From the IMG/VR virus record IMGVR_UViG_3300045988_146736, positions 1 through 28,351 of that record: DNA of 28,351 nucleotides. The stretch is one strand, 5' to 3'. The DNA comes from a virus. Both the position numbers and the translations under genes were made by a program. Shown piece after piece: positions 1,993 through 28,351 of this stretch; positions within the stretch are counted from its first letter, which is position 1; each line of letters begins with the position of its first letter. The notes below the pieces were generated by a model. That model searched no databases and was not told the DNA's origin. It saw nothing but the letters and a program-made list of their open reading frames with translations.

Positions 1993-2084
1993 ACGCTAGC
2001 CGGTTGCGCGCCAGTCGGTGACGCGTGAGCGTCGCCGACGTGATTTTATCCCTCATCCTTTATCTTCTCCTTCATCCTTGCGCG

Positions 2085-2420
2085 CATGTCCCGCGTGACA
2101 TCACGCGCATGTCACACACCTATGTCACGCGTGACGTGAGCGTGACAATGAGGGTTAGGGGTGGGCGCATTTTTCGGTGGGATGGGGCGGTTTGTCGGGG
2201 TGGAGCGGTATATTTCCTGGCATATTTTGCGCTACTTTCCCACTCGGATGTCACGCCGGATGTCACGCGATTTTGCCCCCGGTGTCACGCGCGTTTTTTC
2301 CGATGTCACACGACGTTACGCACCCGGTCACGCGCATGTCACACGTGACTTCACGCGTGACATGTGGCGTGACTGCGGGCGTGGCAGCTGATTGGCAACG
2401 CGTGTTGCAGGTCACGCAAT
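2085..2420. repeat. Iteron-like array of GTCAC(G/A)C motifs (candidate origin of replication or operator array)
   Basis: Exact GTCAC at 2111, 2124, 2250, 2262, 2284, 2305, 2327, 2338 and 2411. Exact GTGAC at 2095, 2131, 2142, 2345, 2357 and 2369. Most extend to (C/G)ATGTCACRCG. Palindromes at 2093..2106 and 2124..2135. Perfect 12-bp tandem cggatgtcacgc at 2245..2268. AT-rich patches at 2041..2080 and 2208..2243. Confidence 0.7.
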
Positions 2421-2425
2421 TACCC

Positions 2426-2503
2426 TTGCATACGGCTATGCATAGGTGTATGCTGGGGTCATCGGGAGGAAAGGCCCCCCGATAGACCGAAAGGACCGAA
2501 GCC
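2426..2503 (+). promoter_or_regulatory. Early promoter-leader cassette, copy 1 (TTGCAT-17-TATGCT, 5' hairpin, conserved RBS block)
   Basis: -35 at 2426..2431 and -10 at 2449..2454. A hairpin at 2461..2483 begins about 7 nt after the -10. The AGACCGAAAGGACCGAA block lies directly before the ATG at 2504. Bases 2425..2457 are 33/33 identical to the reverse complement of 7331..7363. Confidence 0.7.
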
Positions 2504-2869
2504 ATGAACACCGAGACCGCGACCACGAACGAAACCATCCGCGACTACCTCGGCGACTTCGCCAATGAGTTCACCGAGGATCAAATCAGCATCATCACCG
2601 CCGCCGCTACAGACGTCGAGGAGCGCATCATCGCCAAGTACGGCGACATGACCCTCGAGGAGCGCGGCGTGATGATGCTGACGCCGCTCGAGGCTATCGT
2701 CGAGTACGTCAGTGATGAGACGACGCTCGCTAAGTGCGTCGGCGACGATGAGCGCCTGGAGGCCGCCCTGATCGCCGGTGCATACAGTGGCCGCCTCACG
2801 GAGCGCCTTGCCGAAGCCGCCGGGATCGACCTGGCCAAGGCGCAGGAGCTCCTCGGGGATCTTGCCTGA
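2504..2869 (+). CDS. Acidic protein of unknown function, paralog A (121 aa), possible C-terminal helix-turn-helix
   Basis: ATG with the conserved RBS block. By eye it aligns along its whole length with the product of 8723..9082 (MNTET..., ITxAAT..EER, YGxMT, RLExAxIAGxYxG, LAxxAGIxLAKAxxxLGxL). I count about 26 Asp/Glu against 9 Arg/Lys. Confidence 0.8.
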   Translation: MNTETATTNETIRDYLGDFANEFTEDQISIITAAATDVEERIIAKYGDMTLEERGVMMLTPLEAIVEYVSDETTLAKCVGDDERLEAALIAGAYSGRLTERLAEAAGIDLAKAQELLGDLA

Positions 2870-2877
2870 CTTACCCC

Positions 2878-2907
2878 GGAGGCCCCGTCCATCCCGGCGG
2901 GGCCTCC
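2878..2907 (+). promoter_or_regulatory. GC-rich hairpin after paralog A (possible attenuator or RNA-stabilising element)
   Basis: ggaggccccg (2878..2887) pairs with cggggcctcc (2898..2907): a 10-bp stem with a 10-nt loop and no U-tract. A hairpin occupies the same position after paralog B. Confidence 0.4.
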
Positions 2908-2930
2908 ACCTCGTGAAAGGATAATACACC

Positions 2931-3152
2931 ATGACCACCATCGAGCCCCCCGACTTCGCGTTCAACTTCAAGACCGGATATGCCCGCATTGGCTCCGAGA
3001 CCATCCGCCCAATCAATGGCATCACCCAGCAGACCAACGGCTTCGGGGCGCATTTCATCACACTGACTATCCCGGTTGCCCGCGTCATCATCGAGGACGA
3101 TCCGACCGGCCCCGTTAACCCGTCCGCCCCTAGCTTCACCGTGCGCCCCTGA
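2931..3152 (+). CDS. Hypothetical protein (73 aa)
   Basis: ATG preceded by GAAAGGA. Same strand as the rest of island 1. No recognisable motif. Confidence 0.55.
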   Translation: MTTIEPPDFAFNFKTGYARIGSETIRPINGITQQTNGFGAHFITLTIPVARVIIEDDPTGPVNPSAPSFTVRP

Positions 3153-3165
3153 AGGGACTAAGACA

Positions 3166-3888
3166 ATGACCGCTATTGACAAGATCATCGCGCAGATTCG
3201 CCAGCTCCTGAAAATTGCGTCCGACGGGGGCGCGAGTATCAACGAGCGCGAATTGGCGCAGCGTCGCGCCGAGCGTCTCATGGTGCGTTATCGCATCGAA
3301 ACACTGCCCGATAGTGACGCGCGCGCCCGCGACGAAGACATGACTACCATCACAGTTGAAATCAAGGGGAGCTCCGGGTCAATGGCGCGCGCAATCGTGG
3401 ACGGCCTCGCCACGCTCTCCCACGCTCTGAGTTGCTTCTGTTCGTGGCGCATGTACCGAAGCCACATCGTGGCTACCATCGTGGGCACCCGCTCGGACCT
3501 CGCATACGTCACGGAGTTCTACAACGCTGCCGTAGCGTCCTACCCGTCCATGTTGAAGGCCCGGCTGCGTCACGAAGACTTCTACAGTGAGTCGGAGCGC
3601 CGTCGTTTCCGGCGTTCCTACGTGATGGGCTATTTTGAGGGCATCGCCGAGCGTATCGAGATCGCTACCCGTGAGGAGACGACGTCGACGGGGCAGGAAC
3701 TTGTGCTTGCGTCCCGATACCAGCGGGCCGAGGCGAAGGCCCGCGAGGGGTGCAAAATACGCATGGCGCGTGACCTCATGATCGACCATAACGCGACGGT
3801 TGGCGGACAGCGCGACGGGTACGCCTCCGGCATTGGCTGGATGGGCGAGCGCCTTGACGGCCCGCGCGTCGGCATTGCCGCCTCCTGA
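3166..3888 (+). CDS. DUF2786-like protein (240 aa)
   Basis: ORF 3076..3888 trimmed to the ATG at 3166 (GAAGGGA upstream). The N-terminus IDKIIAQIRQLLKIASDGGASINERELAQRRAERLMVRYRIE matches my recollection of the DUF2786 pattern (KI.kLLalA...neNEAe.A...A..Lm.ky.I). Confidence 0.6.
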   Translation: MTAIDKIIAQIRQLLKIASDGGASINERELAQRRAERLMVRYRIETLPDSDARARDEDMTTITVEIKGSSGSMARAIVDGLATLSHALSCFCSWRMYRSHIVATIVGTRSDLAYVTEFYNAAVASYPSMLKARLRHEDFYSESERRRFRRSYVMGYFEGIAERIEIATREETTSTGQELVLASRYQRAEAKAREGCKIRMARDLMIDHNATVGGQRDGYASGIGWMGERLDGPRVGIAAS

Positions 3889-3912
3889 TGAATTCACCGA
3901 AAGGCATCCCCC

Positions 3913-4374
3913 ATGAATCGTGTTGCGCGCCCCCTCGTTGGGCTGCTGATCCTGATCGTCCTTGTCCTCGTGTTCGTGATGTCCGGCGGGTCTGCGTCCC
4001 GCACGTCGAACGCGGTGGCGAACACGCCAGCCCCTCCGGTGCTGACCGGGTGGGTGGGTGCGGATAGCCGCCAGCAGTGGACGCTATCGTGGACGCCCGC
4101 GTCGAGCGGCGGTCTTGTCGACGTGGCGTCTGATTCGGAGGACGTGTACCCGGGCGTGACGTGCCGGACGGACGCCGGGCGTGAATTCACGCTGACTGGC
4201 ACGCAGGAGGCCGTGAATCGCGTGTCCGTCCGCATCCCGGCGGGTGTCGCGCGGTGTGATGCGTACATGGGCGGGCGGCCCGCATCGAAGACGCGGCGCA
4301 TGTTCAATAACGTGACCGTCGACGGCGCGCCCGTGATTGGTGTCATCGAGCCGGGAGCTGCGCGGATGGTCTAA
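3913..4374 (+). CDS. Signal-anchored or secreted protein (153 aa), function unknown
   Basis: ATG with CGAAAGG 8 nt upstream. The N-terminus MNRVARPLVGLLILIVLVLVFVMSGG is a basic stretch followed by a long hydrophobic helix. There is no lipobox Cys. It is the last gene of island 1, just before the terminator. Confidence 0.65.
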   Translation: MNRVARPLVGLLILIVLVLVFVMSGGSASRTSNAVANTPAPPVLTGWVGADSRQQWTLSWTPASSGGLVDVASDSEDVYPGVTCRTDAGREFTLTGTQEAVNRVSVRIPAGVARCDAYMGGRPASKTRRMFNNVTVDGAPVIGVIEPGAARMV

Positions 4375-4381
4375 TGTTGAT

Positions 4382-4421
4382 AGCGCCCCGCCTTCCTGTT
4401 TGTCAGGATCGGCGGGGCGCT
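4382..4421. terminator. Bidirectional terminator hairpin between island 1 and the recombination operon
   Basis: agcgccccgcc (4382..4392) pairs with ggcggggcgct (4411..4421): an 11-bp stem with an 18-nt loop, followed by tttgcgttt on the plus strand. It sits between convergent genes. Confidence 0.55.
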
Positions 4422-4427
4422 TTGCGT

Positions 4428-4859
4428 TTAGTCATCGATTGCTGTCACGGCGACGTGTACGCCGGGCGGTTGGCCGTCGGATGCCCACCGTTTGGTCAGG
4501 ACCCACGTCACGATGCGCGAGTCCTCTAGCAGGATGCCGCCGGGGGCCGCGAGCGCATCGCCGACGGCGCGGGCCAGCTTGTCGAGGTCCGGTTTGGTTG
4601 CCGCGTGGTCAGGGAACCTGGGGCGCTTTGGGCGCGGTAGGTAGAAGTGCGCCTGGACGGCGACAGGGCCGTCATACTGTGGCTCCCACCCGGCGGCGCG
4701 GGCGGCGTCGTTGGCGGAGCGGGCGACGATGGTTCGCCACCCCGCGAGCCGGGGGTTGTCGTGCGCGACGACGGGACGCCCGCCCCGGTAACCGACGTAC
4801 CTGTGAGAGCCTTCGGGGGCGGCGACGCCCTCCGCGAAGAAACTGACCACGCGTTTCAC
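4428..4859 (-). CDS. rusA: RusA-family Holliday junction resolvase (143 aa)
   Basis: ORF 4428..4964 trimmed to the GTG at 4859, which overlaps the upstream TGA (GTGA). Motif KPDLDKLARAVGDAL...LLEDSRIV is typical of RusA. Confidence 0.75.
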   Translation of the reverse strand: MKRVVSFFAEGVAAPEGSHRYVGYRGGRPVVAHDNPRLAGWRTIVARSANDAARAAGWEPQYDGPVAVQAHFYLPRPKRPRFPDHAATKPDLDKLARAVGDALAAPGGILLEDSRIVTWVLTKRWASDGQPPGVHVAVTAIDD

Positions 4860-5458
4860 TGTTCGCCGCCGTCGTCGTTCAGGGCGGTCACGCGCGCCTT
4901 GATGAGGTCCTGCAGCTCGGGGTGCGCTTGCCACCACGCGCGGAGCTGTTCCTTGTCCGTGCAAGCGGCGATCAGCTCGGGCGTGACGGCGGGCGTCGTC
5001 GCGTCGTTATTCGCCGCGTCGGCGGTTGCCGGGCGTCCGTCTTCGTCGGGGTCGCCGGTGATGCCCCAATCAACCTGGGCGAGCTGGCGCTTCGCGTAGG
5101 TCAGGTTTGCGCCGAACGCCTGGGGGTTTGCCGGTCGGTCAACGATGAGCGCGCCGAGGGGCATAGTGTTTCCGTCGGCGTCCACGAGGCTCGAGATGAG
5201 GATAGGCGGCGTGTCCCCGGTGGGGGCCTGGATCGCCTGTCGGTAGGCGAGCCCGTGCTTTGCGCACGCGGCGCGGATGACGCCGAGCGTGGCTTTCAGG
5301 GATGCGAAGCGCGTCCTGAAGTGCGGGTTCGACGCGTCGAGGGGCGGGTTTTCACAGTCTGCCCAGGCGGCGGCGAAGCGCGCCTCGATGCTGACAGGGG
5401 TTCGCGCGGGCGTGGTCTTGCGGGCAGCGGGCTTCTTTTCGGGGGCGGTGTCGGTCAT
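4856..5458 (-). CDS. ERF-family single-strand annealing protein (200 aa)
   Basis: Motif NPHFRTRFASLKATLGVIRAACAKHGLAYRQ resembles the ERF signature (N..F.skYa.L..v......khGl...Q). It lies next to an exonuclease and a resolvase. Confidence 0.65.
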   Translation of the reverse strand: MTDTAPEKKPAARKTTPARTPVSIEARFAAAWADCENPPLDASNPHFRTRFASLKATLGVIRAACAKHGLAYRQAIQAPTGDTPPILISSLVDADGNTMPLGALIVDRPANPQAFGANLTYAKRQLAQVDWGITGDPDEDGRPATADAANNDATTPAVTPELIAACTDKEQLRAWWQAHPELQDLIKARVTALNDDGGEQ

Positions 5459-5479
5459 TGTCGTGTCCTTTCTATGTGG

Positions 5480-6322
5480 TCAGTTTGCCTGGGCGGCGTA
5501 CCAGGCGGGCGGGGTGATTTCGGTGATCGCATCGCCGTAGGCGGGCCAGACGTTGAACACCTGGCACATGTTCAGGGTGTCGAGGGCACGGCGCATACGC
5601 GCGTACCCGGCGGCGAGGAAAGACTCGTCCATGATGACGACGCTAACCAGGTGGGGGGCGTCCACGCCGACGAGGACGTGAACGAAGCACGCGTCCTCAC
5701 CGGTGACGGCTTTCCACTGGGTCAGATACCAGGCGGCCTGGACCGCGTAGTCGAGGTTCGCGGCGTCGCGCGCCCACGACTTGGGGCGCGGCTGCCTCGT
5801 GGTTTTCAGGTCCACGAGGACGGTACGCCCGACGTCGTCTCGCGTGGTCCAATCGATCCGGCCCCGGAGCCATAGGCCCGTGTCGGGGTCAACGCTGTAG
5901 ATCGACTGCTCGGGCGTGCCCTGTGCGAACAGGGCTGCGGCGGCGGGGTGGTTCATGACCGCCTGGTAGGCGTCCTCGGCGCGCGCGTAGTCGGCGCGAC
6001 TCATGGGGACCTGGCCGCGCTCACGGGCCGCCGCGATGTCTTCCTTCGCGGCCTTTGTGCGTAGGCTGTCGTGGTCGTGGACGTAGATGTCAAGGCCGGT
6101 ACCAAGGACCATACCGTGGACGGTGTGACCGAAATCGAACGCTGCCTTCGGGGGGGCCGGGTTCTCTTTCGACCACTTGTAAAGGGCCGGGCAATCGAGG
6201 AGGCGCTTAGCCTCCGTCGATGACACCGACCCGGGGGGGCCAAAACGGCCCGAGTGGTAGTCCAGCTCGGGCACGTCGGGGTAGATGCCTGCCACGAAAG
6301 CGGCGGGGTCATTGTCTGCCAT
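5480..6322 (-). CDS. PD-(D/E)XK (RecB/Cas4-like) exonuclease (280 aa)
   Basis: Motifs GRIDW...LVDLKTT and YAVQAAWY (D...(D/E)xK plus QxxxY), in a recombination-module context. Confidence 0.7.
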   Translation of the reverse strand: MADNDPAAFVAGIYPDVPELDYHSGRFGPPGSVSSTEAKRLLDCPALYKWSKENPAPPKAAFDFGHTVHGMVLGTGLDIYVHDHDSLRTKAAKEDIAAARERGQVPMSRADYARAEDAYQAVMNHPAAAALFAQGTPEQSIYSVDPDTGLWLRGRIDWTTRDDVGRTVLVDLKTTRQPRPKSWARDAANLDYAVQAAWYLTQWKAVTGEDACFVHVLVGVDAPHLVSVVIMDESFLAAGYARMRRALDTLNMCQVFNVWPAYGDAITEITPPAWYAAQAN

Positions 6323-6524
6323 GTGTGGGTCTTTCCTTTCGGTCGGAATGTTGTCGGGATAGGCGTCGCCAGTCCCGGCTTAGGCTGATCGTGCCCGCGA
6401 GCGCGATCACGGCACCGAGGGGGAGCGCCCAGGACGGGTCCCAACCCCCGGGGTTGGTAGGGCCACCCGACGCGGCGACGACGAGCAGTCCCACAATGAG
6501 GAGGATAGGGGTGAGCGGGTTCAT
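6309..6524 (-). CDS. Small membrane protein (71 aa)
   Basis: ORF 6309..6566 trimmed to the ATG at 6524 (AAGGAGGG upstream, ATGA overlap with the upstream stop). It has two hydrophobic segments (PILLIVGLLVVAASGG and WALPLGAVIALAGTI). Confidence 0.55.
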   Translation of the reverse strand: MNPLTPILLIVGLLVVAASGGPTNPGGWDPSWALPLGAVIALAGTISLSRDWRRLSRQHSDRKERPTHGRQ

Positions 6525-6850
6525 TTGCGTCCCTCCTTGCTGACCAGCGGGTAGGAAATGATGCACGGCACATGGTCGATTGCGCCGTCCTCGGCGCGGA
6601 TCGCCACGCAGCCGTGCATTTCGAGGTCGTTGCCGTTGACGACGACATACCGGGCGTCGTTCATGAGCATTGCCGCGTCAATGGTGTCGTCGCGCTTCAG
6701 GGCGTGGAGTTCGACGCCCCACACGCCCTGGAACTCGGCGCTGCGGGCGACACGGACGTCCGCGACCGCGCGCGTTGACTGTTGCACGACGTCAACGAAG
6801 CGGGCGGCTACGCGTTTGGCGGCTTGGAAGGCCAGGAAATCGGGGTCCAT
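6521..6850 (-). CDS. Hypothetical protein (109 aa)
   Basis: ORF 6521..6955 trimmed to the ATG at 6850 (GAAAGGA upstream). No recognisable motif. Confidence 0.6.
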   Translation of the reverse strand: MDPDFLAFQAAKRVAARFVDVVQQSTRAVADVRVARSAEFQGVWGVELHALKRDDTIDAAMLMNDARYVVVNGNDLEMHGCVAIRAEDGAIDHVPCIISYPLVSKEGRK

Positions 6851-6914
6851 GATGGGTGTCCTTTCGATGGGGTGCCCCCGGCCCTGTGGGGCGGGCCGGG
6901 GGCGATGGTGGTTG

Positions 6915-7283
6915 TCACTCGCTGTCGGCGAGCGCGGCGGCGATAGCCGTGTCAATGGCCGGGTAGGTCGGGCGCTCCTTACCCTCCCACTTGGAGCCCG
7001 CCCACACCTGCGCGGGCCAAAGGCGGCGGGGAAGGACGGCCTCGATGTCCGGCCACTCGCCCGGATCGTCGGATGAGAAGTAGACCTTCTCGCCGAGGAT
7101 GCGGTTCATGACGACGCGAACCTCGTCGTCAATGACGTCGATGTAGATTGCGAGGAGGTTGTCGCCGTCAACGCGGGCCGTGAGGTCTGCGCCGGGCGCG
7201 ATGATGCGCTTCCAGTCGCCGAGGGGCAGCTTGTTCAGGTCGATCCAGTTGAGTTGATCGGCGGAGGTAATGATCGGGTTCAT
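6915..7283 (-). CDS. Hypothetical protein (122 aa), first gene behind early cassette copy 3
   Basis: ORF 6915..7442 trimmed to the ATG at 7283. That ATG is preceded by the same AGACCGAAAGGACCGAAACC block seen upstream of 2504 and 8723. Confidence 0.7.
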   Translation of the reverse strand: MNPIITSADQLNWIDLNKLPLGDWKRIIAPGADLTARVDGDNLLAIYIDVIDDEVRVVMNRILGEKVYFSSDDPGEWPDIEAVLPRRLWPAQVWAGSKWEGKERPTYPAIDTAIAAALADSE

Positions 7284-7362
7284 GGTTTCGGTCCTTTCGG
7301 TCTTTGGGCGGGCGTTTCCCTCCCAATGATCCCAGCATACACCTATGCATAGCCGTATGCAA
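7284..7362 (-). promoter_or_regulatory. Early promoter-leader cassette, copy 3 (inverted relative to copies 1 and 2)
   Basis: Minus strand: -35 TTGCAT (7362..7357), 17-nt spacer, -10 TATGCT (7339..7334), hairpin 7326..7304, then AGACCGAAAGGACCGAAACC-ATG. Confidence 0.7.
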
Positions 7363-7397
7363 GACGCGTTTAGTGATGTGGCATACATAAAGTGAAA

Positions 7398-7430
7398 GGG
7401 GGCCTCGCCGACCGAAAAGGCGAGGCCCCC
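7398..7430 (-). terminator. Terminator hairpin downstream of the methyltransferase gene
   Basis: gggggcctcgcc (7398..7409) pairs with ggcgaggccccc (7419..7430): a 12-bp stem with a 9-nt loop. On the minus strand it is followed by TTTCACTTTAT. A second 6-bp hairpin lies at 7433..7449. Confidence 0.65.
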
Positions 7431-7534
7431 ATGCCCCGACATGCGGGGCGGTGATGCACGGCTACAGTATATACACGGCGAACGCGGGCGCGCAAGTCGA
7501 AACTAACCGACCGGCAAAACGCCGCGCCCGCGCG

Positions 7535-8545
7535 TTAAATGAGGAAGTCGAGCGGCGCGTCGATCCCCCGCCGGAACCGATCATGAATCAACGGGATATA
7601 GCGCTCGTCGAGCTCACACCCGACCGCGTTCACGCCCTCCATTGCGGCGGCCTGTAGGGTCGTCCCCGACCCGGCGAACGGCTCGAGGATCGTCGCGCCT
7701 GGCCTCACCACAAGCCGGATCAGGTAACGCATGAGATCGAGGGGCTTGACTGTCACGTGCTGCACCCCCCCCACCTTCGGGCGTTCGTGCGTCGGGGCCT
7801 TCGGCTGGTACTTGAAGCTCGGCCAGCTGTGATCGGGCGCGCCCTGTTCGACAGCCGCCGCGAGCGCGGCTTCGCTGACCATGAGGTTAGGCGGGTAGGA
7901 CCCGCCGACGGCGTCCATTGCTGACCGGATGTTCATTGCTCCGGTCCCGAAGGCGCTCACGTTGTCGACTAAGCTGCCCTCGAGTGGCTTTCGAGCCACT
8001 ACGATAGGCTCCCATGCTGGTTTTAGGCCGAGGCCCCAGCCGTCCCATGTCTTAGCCATGTCCGTAACCGGCTCGCCGGAGCTGTGTACCTTGTGGGTGG
8101 ACATATGCGTCGCTGTGTTGCCGCTGTCCCACTTTCTCACGTCGCGCCCCTCGCGCTCGTCGAGAACACCGGCTGCCCTGTCGAACATTGCAGAGAGATT
8201 TACCGCCGCCGGTTTCCTATCGGCGAATATCCATGAGAGTCCATCCCTGACTTCGAAGCCCGCATCCTCAATGCCAGCTGTGAGACGATGGTAGGTTCGC
8301 GGCGACGAAAACGCCAGCAGGTAGCCGCCGGGCTTGATGGTGCGCAGAGCTTCAACTGCCCATGATTCGGCCCATGATTGAAACCCGCGCGGCGTTGCGG
8401 TGTCCCACTTTTCGCCCATGAATGAAATTCCATACGGCGGGTCGGTAATGATCGCGTCGAAGTGATCGGCGGGCATTTCCCGCATGATGTCGCGGCAGTC
8501 GCCGTTGTGGAGGGTAATCCCCTCATAGATTGTTTGTCCGGTCAT
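7535..8545 (-). CDS. DNA methyltransferase, beta-class (N6_N4_Mtase family), probably N6-adenine (336 aa)
   Basis: ORF 7535..8617 trimmed to the ATG at 8545 (the upstream Met codons fall inside the promoter). Motif IV IITDPPYG is near the N-terminus and motif I ILEPFAGSGTT near the C-terminus. There is no adjacent restriction endonuclease. Confidence 0.85.
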   Translation of the reverse strand: MTGQTIYEGITLHNGDCRDIMREMPADHFDAIITDPPYGISFMGEKWDTATPRGFQSWAESWAVEALRTIKPGGYLLAFSSPRTYHRLTAGIEDAGFEVRDGLSWIFADRKPAAVNLSAMFDRAAGVLDEREGRDVRKWDSGNTATHMSTHKVHSSGEPVTDMAKTWDGWGLGLKPAWEPIVVARKPLEGSLVDNVSAFGTGAMNIRSAMDAVGGSYPPNLMVSEAALAAAVEQGAPDHSWPSFKYQPKAPTHERPKVGGVQHVTVKPLDLMRYLIRLVVRPGATILEPFAGSGTTLQAAAMEGVNAVGCELDERYIPLIHDRFRRGIDAPLDFLI

Positions 8546-8579
8546 GGTTGCTCGCTTTGGTAGGTGGCATTGCGTTTCG

Positions 8580-8608
8580 ATAGTAGGGCCATGCATCACT
8601 GTATGCAA
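8580..8608 (-). promoter_or_regulatory. Predicted methyltransferase promoter (TTGCAT-17-TACTAT)
   Basis: Minus strand: TTGCATACagtgATGCATggcccTACTAT. It shares the TTGCATAC-N4-ATGCAT layout with cassette copies 1 and 3, and lies back-to-back with cassette copy 2. Confidence 0.55.
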
Positions 8609-8645
8609 ATCTTCCATATGTGGCTACAGTCTCTTATATCCCTAC

Positions 8646-8722
8646 TTGCATAACGCTATCCACTAGGTGTATGCTGGGGGTATCCCCTGAAGGGCAGGGG
8701 ACAGACCGAAAGGACCGAAACC
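8646..8722 (+). promoter_or_regulatory. Early promoter-leader cassette, copy 2
   Basis: -35 TTGCAT at 8646..8651, 18-nt spacer, -10 TATGCT at 8670..8675. Hairpin tcccctg/cagggga at 8683..8701, then AGACCGAAAGGACCGAAACC-GTG. Confidence 0.65.
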
Positions 8723-9082
8723 GTGAACACCGAGACCGTTATCAAGATGGTTGGCGACTTCTTTGACCTCACCGCCGAGGACTTCACCCCCAAGCAGCTC
8801 GCCGTCATCACCGAAGCCGCGACCGAAATCGAGGAGCGCCTCGCTAGGTACGGCGAGATGACGACGTTCGAGAAGAACATCATGATGCACGGCGCTATGG
8901 GTGCCGTCGTTGACTACGCGAGCGGATGCACGCCCCTGGCCGAGTTCATCTACGATGACGCCCGCCTGGAGGGCGCGATGATCGCGGGCATCTACGCAGG
9001 CAAGACCACGGCCCAGCTCGCCAACGAAGCGGGCATCACGCTTGCCAAGGCGTCGCGCATCCTCGGCAGCCTTGACTTCTGA
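8723..9082 (+). CDS. Acidic protein of unknown function, paralog B (119 aa)
   Basis: GTG start in the conserved leader context. The first 15 coding nt after the start codon are identical to those of 2504..2869. The protein aligns with paralog A over its full length. Confidence 0.8.
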   Translation: MNTETVIKMVGDFFDLTAEDFTPKQLAVITEAATEIEERLARYGEMTTFEKNIMMHGAMGAVVDYASGCTPLAEFIYDDARLEGAMIAGIYAGKTTAQLANEAGITLAKASRILGSLDF

Positions 9083-9090
9083 CCTATCCC

Positions 9091-9114
9091 CGCCCCGCCC
9101 AACCGGGCGGGGCG
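9091..9114 (+). promoter_or_regulatory. GC-rich hairpin after paralog B
   Basis: cgccccgccc (9091..9100) pairs with gggcggggcg (9105..9114): a perfect 10-bp stem with a 4-nt loop, followed by TTAT. Confidence 0.45.
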
Positions 9115-9144
9115 TTATCACCCCAATCACGAAAGAAGACCGAA

Positions 9145-9489
9145 ATGACCGAAAACACCGAAGCCCACGACCGCGATGACCACGTGACCACGGCACTGCT
9201 GGCCGCCCTGATCGGCAAGACCGTACAAAGCGTTACCGTCACGCTCCCAGCCGACGCGCTGACCGGTGACTACCTTGCCCACCTCGTCGCCGACATGGAG
9301 CCCGCCGAGTACGAGGCGTTCGCCGCGACCCTTGACGAGCAGGTCGTCGCCAACGGCGCAACCAAGGCCGCCGCGCTCACCGATCCGCGCGAGGACCGCA
9401 CGCCACATTGGCGGGGCGCTATCTACATGATTGACCGCGACGGGGACGACGTCACCGTGAAGGTGCTGGTTTTCACCTGCCGGTGCTAA
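9145..9489 (+). CDS. Hypothetical acidic protein (114 aa)
   Basis: ATG preceded by GAAAGAAGACCGAA. Second and last gene of island 2. No recognisable motif. Confidence 0.6.
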   Translation: MTENTEAHDRDDHVTTALLAALIGKTVQSVTVTLPADALTGDYLAHLVADMEPAEYEAFAATLDEQVVANGATKAAALTDPREDRTPHWRGAIYMIDRDGDDVTVKVLVFTCRC

Positions 9490-9499
9490 GCGCGTAGAC

Positions 9500-9536
9500 C
9501 AAGGCCCCCACCTGGACGGTCCAGGTGGGGGCCTTG
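9500..9536. terminator. Bidirectional terminator hairpin between island 2 and the end of the late/lysis operon
   Basis: aaggcccccacctgg (9501..9515) pairs with ccaggtgggggcctt (9521..9535): a perfect 15-16-bp stem between convergent genes. There is no clear U-tract, which is common for actinobacterial terminators. Confidence 0.7.
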
Positions 9537-9561
9537 TGGCGAACTAACGAGAAGTACGCTG

Positions 9562-9993
9562 TCAGTGTACCACGTGCGCCGTGAGGGTTTCGCGCTGTGC
9601 CTGTATATCCTCGCGCTGTGCTTGGATGTCCTCACGCATCCGCCCGAGTTCCTCGCGGATGAGTCGCACCTCATTGACGCGCTCGCCGCGCTCAATCTCG
9701 GCGCGCGCGTCGGCGCGGTTTTGTGCGGACTGAATCGCCGCCAGGCCCTCACGCATCTGCGCGGCTAGCGCGTCGAGGTCGTCGCGCAGGTTCGACCCGT
9801 GGTGATTCGTCACCTGCTCACGGGCGGCCTCGGCGGTAGCGTGGACGTCATCGAGCCGCTGTTTCAGGCGCTCCTGGAGCGCCCGCAGCTGGATCGCAAT
9901 CGTCCCACAAATGGCAACAATCACACTGATGAGTGCTGCCACTACCTCCGGGGCCGTGATGACCGCGACGACTGGGTGAGTCGCTCCGGTCAC
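9562..9993 (-). CDS. Membrane-anchored coiled-coil protein (143 aa), lysis-cassette accessory
   Basis: The GTG start overlaps the holin stop (GTGA). N-terminal hydrophobic helix VVAALISVIVAICGTIAIQL, then a charged helical region with the tandem REDIQAQ REDIQAQ. Confidence 0.65.
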   Translation of the reverse strand: MTGATHPVVAVITAPEVVAALISVIVAICGTIAIQLRALQERLKQRLDDVHATAEAAREQVTNHHGSNLRDDLDALAAQMREGLAAIQSAQNRADARAEIERGERVNEVRLIREELGRMREDIQAQREDIQAQRETLTAHVVH

Positions 9994-10295
9994 TGATCGC
10001 CGCCCTCGATGGTGTTAGACGGCGTGGTCAGCTCCTCCCACCAGTCAATCAGGCCGGTGGGCTTTAGGGCGGTGTAGACGAGCTGACCGGCGGCGATCAC
10101 GCCAGCCGCCTCGGTCAGGATGACGCGCCCGGCGTCAGGGAATCGGGTGACTCCCCACGCGATGAGCGTCAGGAGGACGGACGCGGCGATGAAAACCAGG
10201 CGCTTGGTCTGTGCCTCCCAGTGGGAGCGGGTGACCGTTGCGGTCAGGAAGGGGACGAGCGCGCCAATCAGGGCGGCGGTGGTGAGCGGTGCCAT
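9990..10295 (-). CDS. Putative holin (101 aa)
   Basis: Two or three hydrophobic helices and a charged C-terminus. It lies immediately downstream of the endolysin. Confidence 0.65.
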   Translation of the reverse strand: MAPLTTAALIGALVPFLTATVTRSHWEAQTKRLVFIAASVLLTLIAWGVTRFPDAGRVILTEAAGVIAAGQLVYTALKPTGLIDWWEELTTPSNTIEGGDQ

Positions 10296-27268: not shown

Positions 27269-27571
27269 TTACCAGGCTACCAGGGTTGTTGTGGTGCCTG
27301 TTCGGCGGCGCTTTGGAGCGTTGTTGCGCCCGTTCCCGCGCCGTTGATTGCATCGCCTGCATATCGTGCGCCCGTTGTCGAGCGTGTTCGTCCCGCCAAG
27401 CGACCACGGGGTGATGTGGTCGGGTTCGGGGCTGTCCGGTTGCAGGCTGGTGTCCCATGCGAGCGTGACGCCGCAGGTGGGGCAGGTGGTCTGTCCGGCG
27501 GCGCGGTCACGTTTAAGGACGGCTGCACGCCAGCGCTTGTGTCCGGTGGTTCCGGTCCTACTGGTGGTCAT
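27269..27571 (-). CDS. HNH endonuclease (100 aa)
   Basis: CPTCG ... DHITPWSLGGTNTLDNGRTICRRCN (paired CxxC plus the H-N-N/H core). Its position beside the terminase genes is as in cos-type HNH phages. Confidence 0.85.
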   Translation of the reverse strand: MTTSRTGTTGHKRWRAAVLKRDRAAGQTTCPTCGVTLAWDTSLQPDSPEPDHITPWSLGGTNTLDNGRTICRRCNQRRGNGRNNAPKRRRTGTTTTLVAW

Positions 27572-28043
27572 GGTGGGTGGGGGGGGTGGTTGTTGGCGGG
27601 GGGGGGGGTTTGTGGTCCCCCCCCGCCGGGGGGGGTAGAAGGGGGGGGCATTTGGCCAGGGGGTTGGGGGGGGGGGGGGGGGGTTTGTTGGCGGGCGCGC
27701 CGTGCGCTGGTGCGGGGCGCGGTTCCTTGGCGACCTTGGGGAACCGGAGGACGATCTTTTGGCCGGGCTGGCCGTTTTTGGTCGTGTAGGTTTCGAGGGC
27801 GAGGGCGCCCGTTGCGATCACGGGGTCCCCCTTGCGTAGGAGCTCGGCGGCGGCTTCGGCGTCGGCGTCCCATAGGGTCGCGTTGATCCACAGGGGCGCG
27901 CCGTCGTCCTCCCACTCGCCGGTCTGTCGGTTTTTGCGGCGGGGGGTGGCCGCGATGGATAGCTCGAGGACGGCGTGGCCGCCCTGTGTCCATCGGAGCA
28001 CGGGTTCGGCGATCCGGCCTGTGATGGTTGCTGTTGCTGGCAT
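27558..28043 (-). CDS. ssb: Single-stranded DNA-binding protein (OB fold) with a Pro-rich tail of uncertain reading frame (161 aa as read)
   Basis: The N-terminal 100 aa fit the SSB OB-fold pattern (ITGRIAEPVLRWTQGGHAV...LWDADAEAAAELLRKGDPVIATGAL). The C-terminus is encoded by C homopolymers and lacks the usual acidic tip. Confidence 0.75.
   Translation of the reverse strand: MPATATITGRIAEPVLRWTQGGHAVLELSIAATPRRKNRQTGEWEDDGAPLWINATLWDADAEAAAELLRKGDPVIATGALALETYTTKNGQPGQKIVLRFPKVAKEPRPAPAHGAPANKPPPPPPNPLAKCPPLLPPPAGGDHKPPPPPTTTPPTHHDHQ
27579..27683. repeat. Cluster of long G/C homopolymers (G8, G11, C8, G8, G8, G5, G18 on the plus strand)
   Basis: Counted directly: runs at 27579..27586, 27598..27608, 27617..27624, 27628..27635, 27641..27648, 27659..27663 and 27666..27683. 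Confidence 0.9.
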
Positions 28044-28058: not shown

Positions 28059-28351
28059 TTAGTCGCGGGTGGGGAGGTTGCGTGATGCGCGGGCGATGTC
28101 CGCGAAGGCGCGCATCGGGTCATAGTTTCGGTACTCATCGATGATACGCTGCCGTTCGGCGTCGGTGTCGATGGTGTACTCGATGCGGAGCCCGACGTGG
28201 TGCGCGTCAACGTACTCGACGGCGGTCGGTTCAATGCTGATTGCTTCGGCGTCATCGGGTAGCTTGCGGAGGGCTTTGGCGATGTCGCGGAGCTTCACTG
28301 GCTTGTCGGACGCCCAGGTGATTGTCAGGATGCGCGTGTTTCGCGTGTTCA
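28059..28351 (-). CDS. Hypothetical protein, gene split by the linearisation point (97 aa when wrapped; start codon is 33,32,31)
   Basis: The frame of ORF 28059..28298 stays open to the window end. Bases 28350..28351 (equal to 31..32) plus base 33 form an ATG with GAAAGG (47..42) 8 nt upstream and an ATGA overlap with the stop of gene 30..233. The GTG at 28298 has no RBS. Confidence 0.65.
   Translation of the reverse strand, partial: NTRNTRILTITWASDKPVKLRDIAKALRKLPDDAEAISIEPTAVEYVDAHHVGLRIEYTIDTDAERQRIIDEYRNYDPMRAFADIARASRNLPTRD
28320..28351. repeat. Terminal direct repeat, copy 2
   Basis: Identical to 1..32. Confidence 0.9.

Follow-up and report, generated by a model that had tools for sequence, protein, structure and literature searches.

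The stretch analysed here (the window, positions 1-28,351, all 28,351 nucleotides) is a circularly closed assembly of a whole phage genome with a G+C content of 65%. An exact 32-nt direct repeat at its termini (1-32 and 28320-28351) indicates that the window is a complete, circularly closed genome. The only GenBank phage matched by positions 2000-10000 in a megablast search was Actinomyces phage LC001 (~91% identity over 70% of the query), and by sequence the window is a relative of this lytic phage of Schaalia odontolytica. LC001 has been described as a lytic siphovirus that forms clear plaques on strain XH001 (PMC11032452). That description does not mention the two genes considered below, and the GenBank record, in which the host is Schaalia odontolytica XH001, carries no annotation.

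According to both the ORF lists and the annotation, nearly all genes are located on the minus strand. These include the genes for terminase, portal, major head protein, tape measure and endolysin, as well as an N6/N4 DNA methyltransferase (8617-7535), a RecE-like exonuclease (6322-5480), Erf (5458-4856), RusA (4964-4428), a DnaD/O-like replication initiator (1992-1054) and an SSB ORF (27558-28043). This layout is interrupted by two plus-strand islands, island A (2504-4374) and island B (8723-9489), which are present at the borders of minus-strand transcription units, on which they converge. The leading genes of these islands, A and B, do run against the rest of the genome, as stated in a preliminary description of this DNA.

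Paralog A (2504..2869, plus strand) encodes a protein of 121 aa, and paralog B (8723..9082, plus strand), which has a GTG start codon and adjoins the methyltransferase gene, encodes a protein of 119 aa. The two proteins align from end to end with 57 of 120 positions identical (48%; positives 68%; BLASTP E 2e-34), confirming the paralogy proposed previously, and every conserved block named at that time was found in this alignment. A contains 26 D+E against 9 K+R (net -17, pI 4.05), exactly the count given before, and B contains 18 D+E against 9 K+R (net -9, pI 4.41). In a ranking by net charge per residue over the 33 candidate ORFs passing a codon-position GC filter, A was first (-0.14), the gene after B second (-0.096) and B third (-0.076). 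Most proteins of this phage are net negative (median -0.025 per residue), indicating that the acidity of A and B is partly background. The earlier characterisation of both proteins as strongly acidic fits A and its distant homologue P0021, but B is only moderately acidic.

The GC content by codon position in A (0.65/0.41/0.85) and B (0.58/0.42/0.87) is like that of the exonuclease and portal genes, and the mean dN/dS among orthologues was 0.23 over 9 distinct sequences of A and 0.50 over 7 distinct sequences of B. Together, these values identify A and B as real genes. A dN/dS of 0.2-0.5 indicates constraint, with purifying selection in both paralogs and no signal of an arms race. Two long antisense ORFs on the minus strand (2459-3139 and 8663-9196) were also considered as genes and were rejected, as their codon-position GC does not fit.

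Both genes are preceded by a putative promoter and leader, previously described as a duplicated, near-identical cassette. The motif TTGCAT-N17/18-TATGCT has exactly three matches in the window, where 0 are expected, and the 17-mer AGACCGAAAGGACCGAA is present in three exact copies, where 0.1 are expected. The putative promoter core of P_A (2426..2454, plus strand), which comprises TTGCAT, 17 nt and TATGCT, is kept before A in all relatives. The putative core of P_B (8646..8675, plus strand) has the same hexamers and a spacer one base longer (18 nt). A third cassette, P_C, occupies 7290..7362 on the minus strand, with its promoter core at 7362-7334 followed by a leader hairpin and a Shine-Dalgarno block. 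The description as near-identical holds for the core and the Shine-Dalgarno block, which are identical, but there are three copies, those before A and B share only 71% identity over 92 nt, and the leader hairpin has been replaced. P_A and P_C are the closest pair (83% identity over 93 nt) and form the inverted repeats I1 and I2, which are 94% and 88% complementary. In the clade of the related contig L002 the hexamers are TTGCGT or TTGCAT and TATACT, and the layout is retained. A scan with the E. coli promoter consensus does not call the cassette sites; it is the conservation of the cassette that points to a promoter.

P_C heads gene C (6915..7283, minus strand), which encodes an acidic protein of 122 aa that is not related to A and B; two small genes come next, ahead of the exonuclease, Erf and RusA genes. 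The cassette is not confined to accessory islands, since this third copy drives gene C and the recombination genes, and additional copies head an unrelated 132-aa gene in relatives. A fourth ribosome-binding block, GACCGAAAGGA, is present without a promoter at 6334-6344 (minus strand) before the exonuclease gene (start 6322), and also in L007 and L009.

The leader of A (2457..2503, plus strand) contains a stem-loop (2457-2488) just past the predicted transcription start, followed by the Shine-Dalgarno block AGACCGAAAGGACCGAAGCC. The leader of B (8679..8722, plus strand) has a different stem at the same place (8679-8707) and a Shine-Dalgarno block as in A, and the corresponding stem-loop of P_C lies at 7331-7300 (minus strand). 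The stems are TCGGGAGG(G)/CCC(G)CCCGA in P_A and P_C and CCCCTG/CAGGGG in P_B; a shared position with a different stem sequence suggests a conserved 5' RNA structure. Beyond each gene, a GC-rich hairpin begins 8 nt past the stop codon on the plus strand, with a 12-bp stem and no U tract after A (2878..2907; -30 kcal/mol, z -3.7) and a 10-bp stem after B (9091..9114; -25 kcal/mol, z -3.9). Both folds had been reported earlier at these positions, and in each case none of 200 shuffles folds as well. Among relatives, the place of the hairpin after A is kept with three different stem sequences, and the hairpin after B is absent from three relatives.

Two further sequence features were observed around the cassettes. 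The spacers of P_A (2428-2453) and P_C (7360-7335, minus strand) carry GCATA-N4-TATGCATA-N4-TATGC, which forms two overlapping 14-bp dyads across the -35 to -10 region. P_B retains only the left dyad (8648-8661), which is perfect (GCATAGCGCTATGC) in the relative L011. These dyads may represent an operator, or may result from the reverse complementarity between the -35 and -10 hexamers. About 13 copies of TGTCACRCG (one mismatch allowed), in both orientations, are present at 2087-2362, with no other cluster in the window. This array fills the intergenic space from which the replication initiator gene and P_A diverge, and is probably an iteron array or origin and possibly an operator array.

Behind A, the second gene of island A (2931..3152, plus strand) encodes 73 aa with no family match and is missing from most relatives. 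The third (3166..3888, plus strand) encodes a DUF2786/phrog_421 protein of 240 aa, which is intact in the window, L005, L006, L007, L010 and L011. It is missing from LC001, L008, L009, L012 and the genome that carries P0004, and the deletion junctions are of at least two kinds, one in LC001 and one in P0004. The fourth (3913..4374, plus strand) encodes a basic protein of 153 aa with the hydrophobic N-terminal segment LVGLLILIVLVLVFVM. It is present in every relative covering its locus, even those in which the genes between A and it have been deleted, and its product may be a membrane-anchored exclusion or envelope protein. In island B, the second gene (9145..9489, plus strand) encodes an acidic protein of 114 aa with no family match.

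The A/B family has a narrow distribution. A profile search of 1.84 billion representative proteins recovered 11 members at E up to 0.001, and all of those with genomic context read belong to phages of this group. Word-index searches returned only close relatives of each paralog, a tblastn search of GenBank phages matched only LC001, and no prophage copy was found in 185,579 species genomes. The homologues found overall are close relatives, shortened or chimeric variants and one distant clade (P0021, P0024 and P0026), with 347 and 373 members in the two largest protein clusters. The preliminary description had asked how widespread the pair is and whether it always travels with the cassette. A and B are both present behind their cassettes in the window and in L007, L008, L009, L011 and L012; of the six related contigs spanning both island positions, five keep both copies, as does the window. 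In L005, A is present, B is absent and a cassette heads an unrelated, very acidic 132-aa gene at the place of B. This cassette-headed protein (MKAYRFQD...) is encoded at 6813-7211 of L005 and at 11002-11400 of L002. The L002 clade has a single family member, P0021 (117 aa; 51% identical to A and 37% to B), which lies at the island B position although it is closer to A.

Several relatives carry altered versions of these genes. LC001 lacks the equivalent of window positions 7910-9247, and with it B and two thirds of the methyltransferase gene, as well as that of positions 2808-3847, where the last 19 residues of A have been replaced. Its version of A (L001 3251-3583) consists of residues 1-102, continued at a shared ERL tripeptide by the ten C-terminal residues of the DUF2786 protein. 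The deletions in LC001 might be laboratory artefacts, and its shortened A could still work. P0004 is also a fusion of A to the DUF2786 tail, at a junction other than that of LC001, P0019 and P0020 comprise residues 1-31 of B fused to the following gene, and P0023, P0025 and P0027 have internal deletions. P0026 (L015 8005-8316) consists of residues 1-50 of gene C followed by the 53 C-terminal residues of a P0021-like protein, and is encoded at the island B position of a phage in which no methyltransferase gene was called at that site. This chimera hinted at a concealed homology of gene C with the A/B family, which was rejected (hhalign probability 0.1%), and P0026 is therefore a true domain swap. 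The earlier reading of A and B as accessory gains indirect support from the loss of B and alteration of A in LC001, the absence of B from L005, the single copy in the L002 clade, and the deleted and chimeric versions in metagenome assemblies.

This turnover could also be taken to mean that the A and B proteins do little, and that the islands persist through recombination and duplication of the cassettes or as strong counter-direction transcription that insulates neighbouring operons. The frequent deletions, chimeras and copy-number changes agree with this, as does the position of both islands at junctions of minus-strand units on which they converge. The purifying selection in both A and B argues against it, however, together with the retention of both copies in five of the six informative contigs plus the window, and the conservation of a confidently predicted fold across proteins that are only 36-51% identical, making this explanation very improbable.

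Scans of Pfam, PHROG, NCBIfam and PADLOC covered A, B, P0021 and the island neighbours, and the only match was that of the DUF2786/phrog_421 gene (3166-3888). A and B had no Pfam match at E up to 1 and nothing below E 0.01 in PHROG, NCBIfam and PADLOC, in which known defence and anti-defence families were included. Full-length and C-terminal profiles searched against PDB sequences gave matches at chance level, such as a HEPN toxin (E 0.02-0.16) and a GppA-type pyrophosphatase (E 0.22). AF2 modelled A with confidence (pLDDT 92.7, pTM 0.86; 15-sequence alignment) as helices 9-22, 25-46, 51-70, 74-77, 82-94, 99-106 and 110-120, and B (pLDDT 93.4, pTM 0.86) as seven helices matching those of A, the two models being built on overlapping alignments. 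Both are thus predicted to be compact seven-helix proteins with one shared topology. The best Foldseek matches had E values of 0.49 (PDB, A), 0.48 (BFVD, A) and 1.5 (PDB, B), with TM-scores of ~0.2-0.35. Neither Foldseek nor the PDB sequence search matched a known DNA mimic (Ocr and ArdA included) or an anti-restriction, anti-CRISPR or anti-sigma protein, AsiA did not appear in either search, and no DNA mimic was among the top 50 PDB matches listed for A and B.

The preliminary description could assign the proteins to no family, and this still stands after the searches of Pfam, PHROG, NCBIfam, PADLOC and the PDB; Foldseek on the AlphaFold models and the homology searches likewise returned no structural, housekeeping or other known family. 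If A and B fit anywhere, it is as a new orphan family within a known class, the small acidic early phage proteins, and orphans of this sort are carried by many phages.

Sigma-like and HTH domains recur low in the Foldseek lists at non-significant scores and are treated as a lead only. They include PhyR, RsbN-BldN, SigG1 and actinobacterial sigma chains, all at E above 1, which would be compatible with A and B binding the host RNA polymerase or its principal sigma factor and redirecting or shutting off host transcription in the manner of AsiA. Small size, helical structure, acidity and early-gene position are in keeping with such a role, and a phage of 28 kb whose annotated ORFs include neither an RNA polymerase nor a sigma factor must time its late genes somehow. 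The sigma-like matches are non-significant with TM-scores of 0.2-0.3, however, no specific tie of A or B to RNA polymerase was found, and an essential timing factor is hard to reconcile with LC001, making this role quite unlikely. T4 AsiA is an anti-sigma factor and sigma appropriator, and a small all-helical early protein. It is like A and B in being small, helical and early, and its HTH-like motif binds protein and not DNA, but it has no detectable similarity to them and is needed for T4 middle transcription, whereas LC001 grows without B and with A shortened.

The C-terminal part of both proteins was previously described as HTH-like over the last ~25 residues. The classical HTH pattern involves a small residue at position 5, Gly at position 9 and hydrophobic residues at positions 4, 10 and 18. 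By eye, the segment TERLAEAAGIDLAKAQELLG fits this pattern, and the C-terminal 22 residues match it at all of these positions. AF2 places helices in this part, at 82-94, 99-106 and 110-120 in A and at 79-91, 96-103 and 107-117 in B, and no HTH family was significant. The best Pfam profile was HTH_IclR, which reached E 0.0083 and matched 2 of 15 family members. B-type members gave weak, sub-threshold matches (best E 0.008) to HTH_IclR, HTH_31, HTH_20, Crp and MarR. When the profile of the last 47 residues was searched against the PDB, it had a best E of 0.22 and, as its only HTH-domain match, a weak TetR (E 1.3), and the Foldseek matches to the HTH domains of DosR, KorB and DnaA-DBD were all at E above 3.

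The second helix of this unit reads DLAKAQELLGD in A, DIAEAAEILGD in P0021 and TLAKASRILGS in B-type members, in which the residues that would face DNA are D, L, A, K, A, Q and E in A, D, I, A, E, A, A and E in P0021, and T, L, A, K, A, S and R in B. A polar or basic recognition helix suited to contacting DNA is found only in B-type members (net -8 to -12) and not in A or P0021. B retains T, K, S and R/N at typical DNA-contact positions, whereas the last 45 residues of P0021, whose net charge is -22, are free of K and R. The positions that do not vary between the three clades are mostly occupied by hydrophobic or small residues, with the addition of D14, D81, D82 and E86 and a single basic residue, R41, indicating that the family conserves its fold and acidity rather than a DNA-binding surface. 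With acidic residues at the recognition positions, the HTH-like unit is unlikely to bind DNA in A and P0021; B alone could still do so. A DNA mimic, an RNA polymerase modulator and a switch factor had all been put forward as roles for these proteins, and the acidic recognition positions of A and P0021 speak for protein binding or mimicry rather than for a DNA-reading switch factor.

An alternative, possible though on the unlikely side, is that A and B are DNA-binding HTH regulators of phage transcription, which feed back on the cassettes or act on the TGTCACRCG array and thereby provide a Cro-type early shut-off or an early-to-late switch. The fit of the C-terminal 22 residues to the pattern by eye and the two predicted helices with a short turn are consistent with this, as are the weak HTH matches of B-type members (best E 0.008, below threshold), but no HTH family reached significance. 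B has T, K, S and R at contact positions, but the recognition helix of A contains D and E, and P0021 combines its net charge of -22 with a last 45 residues devoid of basic residues. The GCATA-N4-TATGC dyads of the P_A and P_C spacers, two of them overlapping, would provide operators, but they follow in part from the reverse-complementary -35 and -10 hexamers and are degraded in P_B. The ~13 TGTCACRCG repeats just upstream of P_A would provide another binding site, but they adjoin the replication initiator gene and are more simply explained as an origin. No other obvious regulator is present among the annotated ORFs, but LC001 completes lytic growth without B and without the second and third HTH helices of A. 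Small regulators of the Cro/CI type resemble A and B in size, in having a C-terminal HTH, and in being the first gene behind an early promoter with dyad symmetry; they differ in that A and B have no profile match to them, acidic recognition positions (in A and P0021) and an extra three-helix N-terminal part.

The reading favoured here, at a tentative probability of about 0.4, is that A and B are abundant early accessory proteins that bind a host protein and not DNA, acting as decoys that neutralise a host factor. The host RNA polymerase would read the TTGCAT-N17/18-TATGCT promoter once the phage DNA enters the cell. The transcript would begin with the stem-loop and the strong ribosome-binding block and would contain the GC-rich hairpin just past the first gene, and these elements are proposed to allow expression of the acidic gene as a stable, largely monocistronic message. 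In the seven-helix product, the HTH-like C-terminal unit would have changed from reading DNA to presenting an acidic surface, with which the protein could titrate a host factor that normally binds nucleic acid, such as a nuclease acting on DNA ends or a defence enzyme of the restriction or BREX type. The presence of two paralogs may reflect two targets or two variants of a target.

Several observations agree with this decoy role. A and B each come first behind a cassette of the kind that also drives the recombination operon, and hairpins bracket each of them. A is the most acidic protein of the phage, P0021 reaches a net charge of -22, and the trait shared across the family is acidity and not a DNA-binding surface. 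Both AF2 models predict the same fold with confidence. The genes appear dispensable and subject to turnover, as LC001 grows without B and with a shortened A, the L002 clade has a single copy at the other island, and chimeras and deletions are common. Their range is narrow, with 11 matches in 1.84 billion proteins and none in 185,579 species genomes. B also adjoins an orphan N6/N4 DNA methyltransferase, a type of gene that serves as a counter-restriction device. On the other side, A and B have no sequence or fold likeness to known mimics or anti-defence proteins, B is moderately acidic and retains DNA-contact residues, part of the acidity is background, and dN/dS gives no sign of an arms race.

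T7 Ocr (gp0.3) is a DNA-mimic inhibitor of type I restriction and BREX. Ocr resembles A and B in being ~120 aa long, all-helical, strongly acidic, encoded by the first gene behind strong early host-type promoters, and dispensable in the absence of its target (PMC7261183). It differs from them in having no sequence or fold similarity, and B is far less acidic. T7 gp5.9 and lambda Gam, the DNA-mimic RecBCD inhibitors, are also small, acidic and helical and come from phages with a recombination system (PMC9836394), represented here by exo, Erf and RusA, but A and B lie outside the recombination operon and show no similarity to either. Gene C and its two neighbours are better placed than A and B for a role of the gp5.9/Gam type. 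Ocr and gp5.9 are both small acidic early phage proteins that mimic DNA (PMC7261183 and PMC9836394), and by analogy with these two, the target of A and B would presumably be a DNA-binding defence enzyme or nuclease. Restriction, CRISPR and RNA polymerase had all been suggested previously as targets, and no evidence singles out any of them.

A bolder form of the decoy proposal, which is rather doubtful, is that an HTH domain which once read DNA has become an acidic decoy, mimicking either DNA itself or an HTH or sigma-4 domain of the host, giving a new fold of counter-defence or takeover protein. B would then still be DNA-competent, A and P0021 would be fully acidic, and the cassettes would be recombination sites that shuffle the domain, as in P0026.

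If A and B are decoys, they would represent a structurally new family of inhibitors from a common group of human oral phages, and would direct attention to a target in the defence or DNA processing of oral Actinomycetota, whose phage-host biology is little explored. If they are ordinary regulators, the result would be routine annotation of an orphan family. The features that set this family apart are a confident fold without neighbours, paralogs with contrasting HTH surfaces, cassette-mediated shuffling and a near-null phage in culture with its host, as both LC001 and XH001 are cultured and LC001 is a natural near-null in which B is absent and A is shortened.

Elsewhere in the genome, a pair of long G tracts, separated by 75 nt and reaching up to ~18 G on the plus strand, is present at 27584-27688, at the 3' end of the SSB ORF, and the ends of the LC001 record map to ~27601 of the window.
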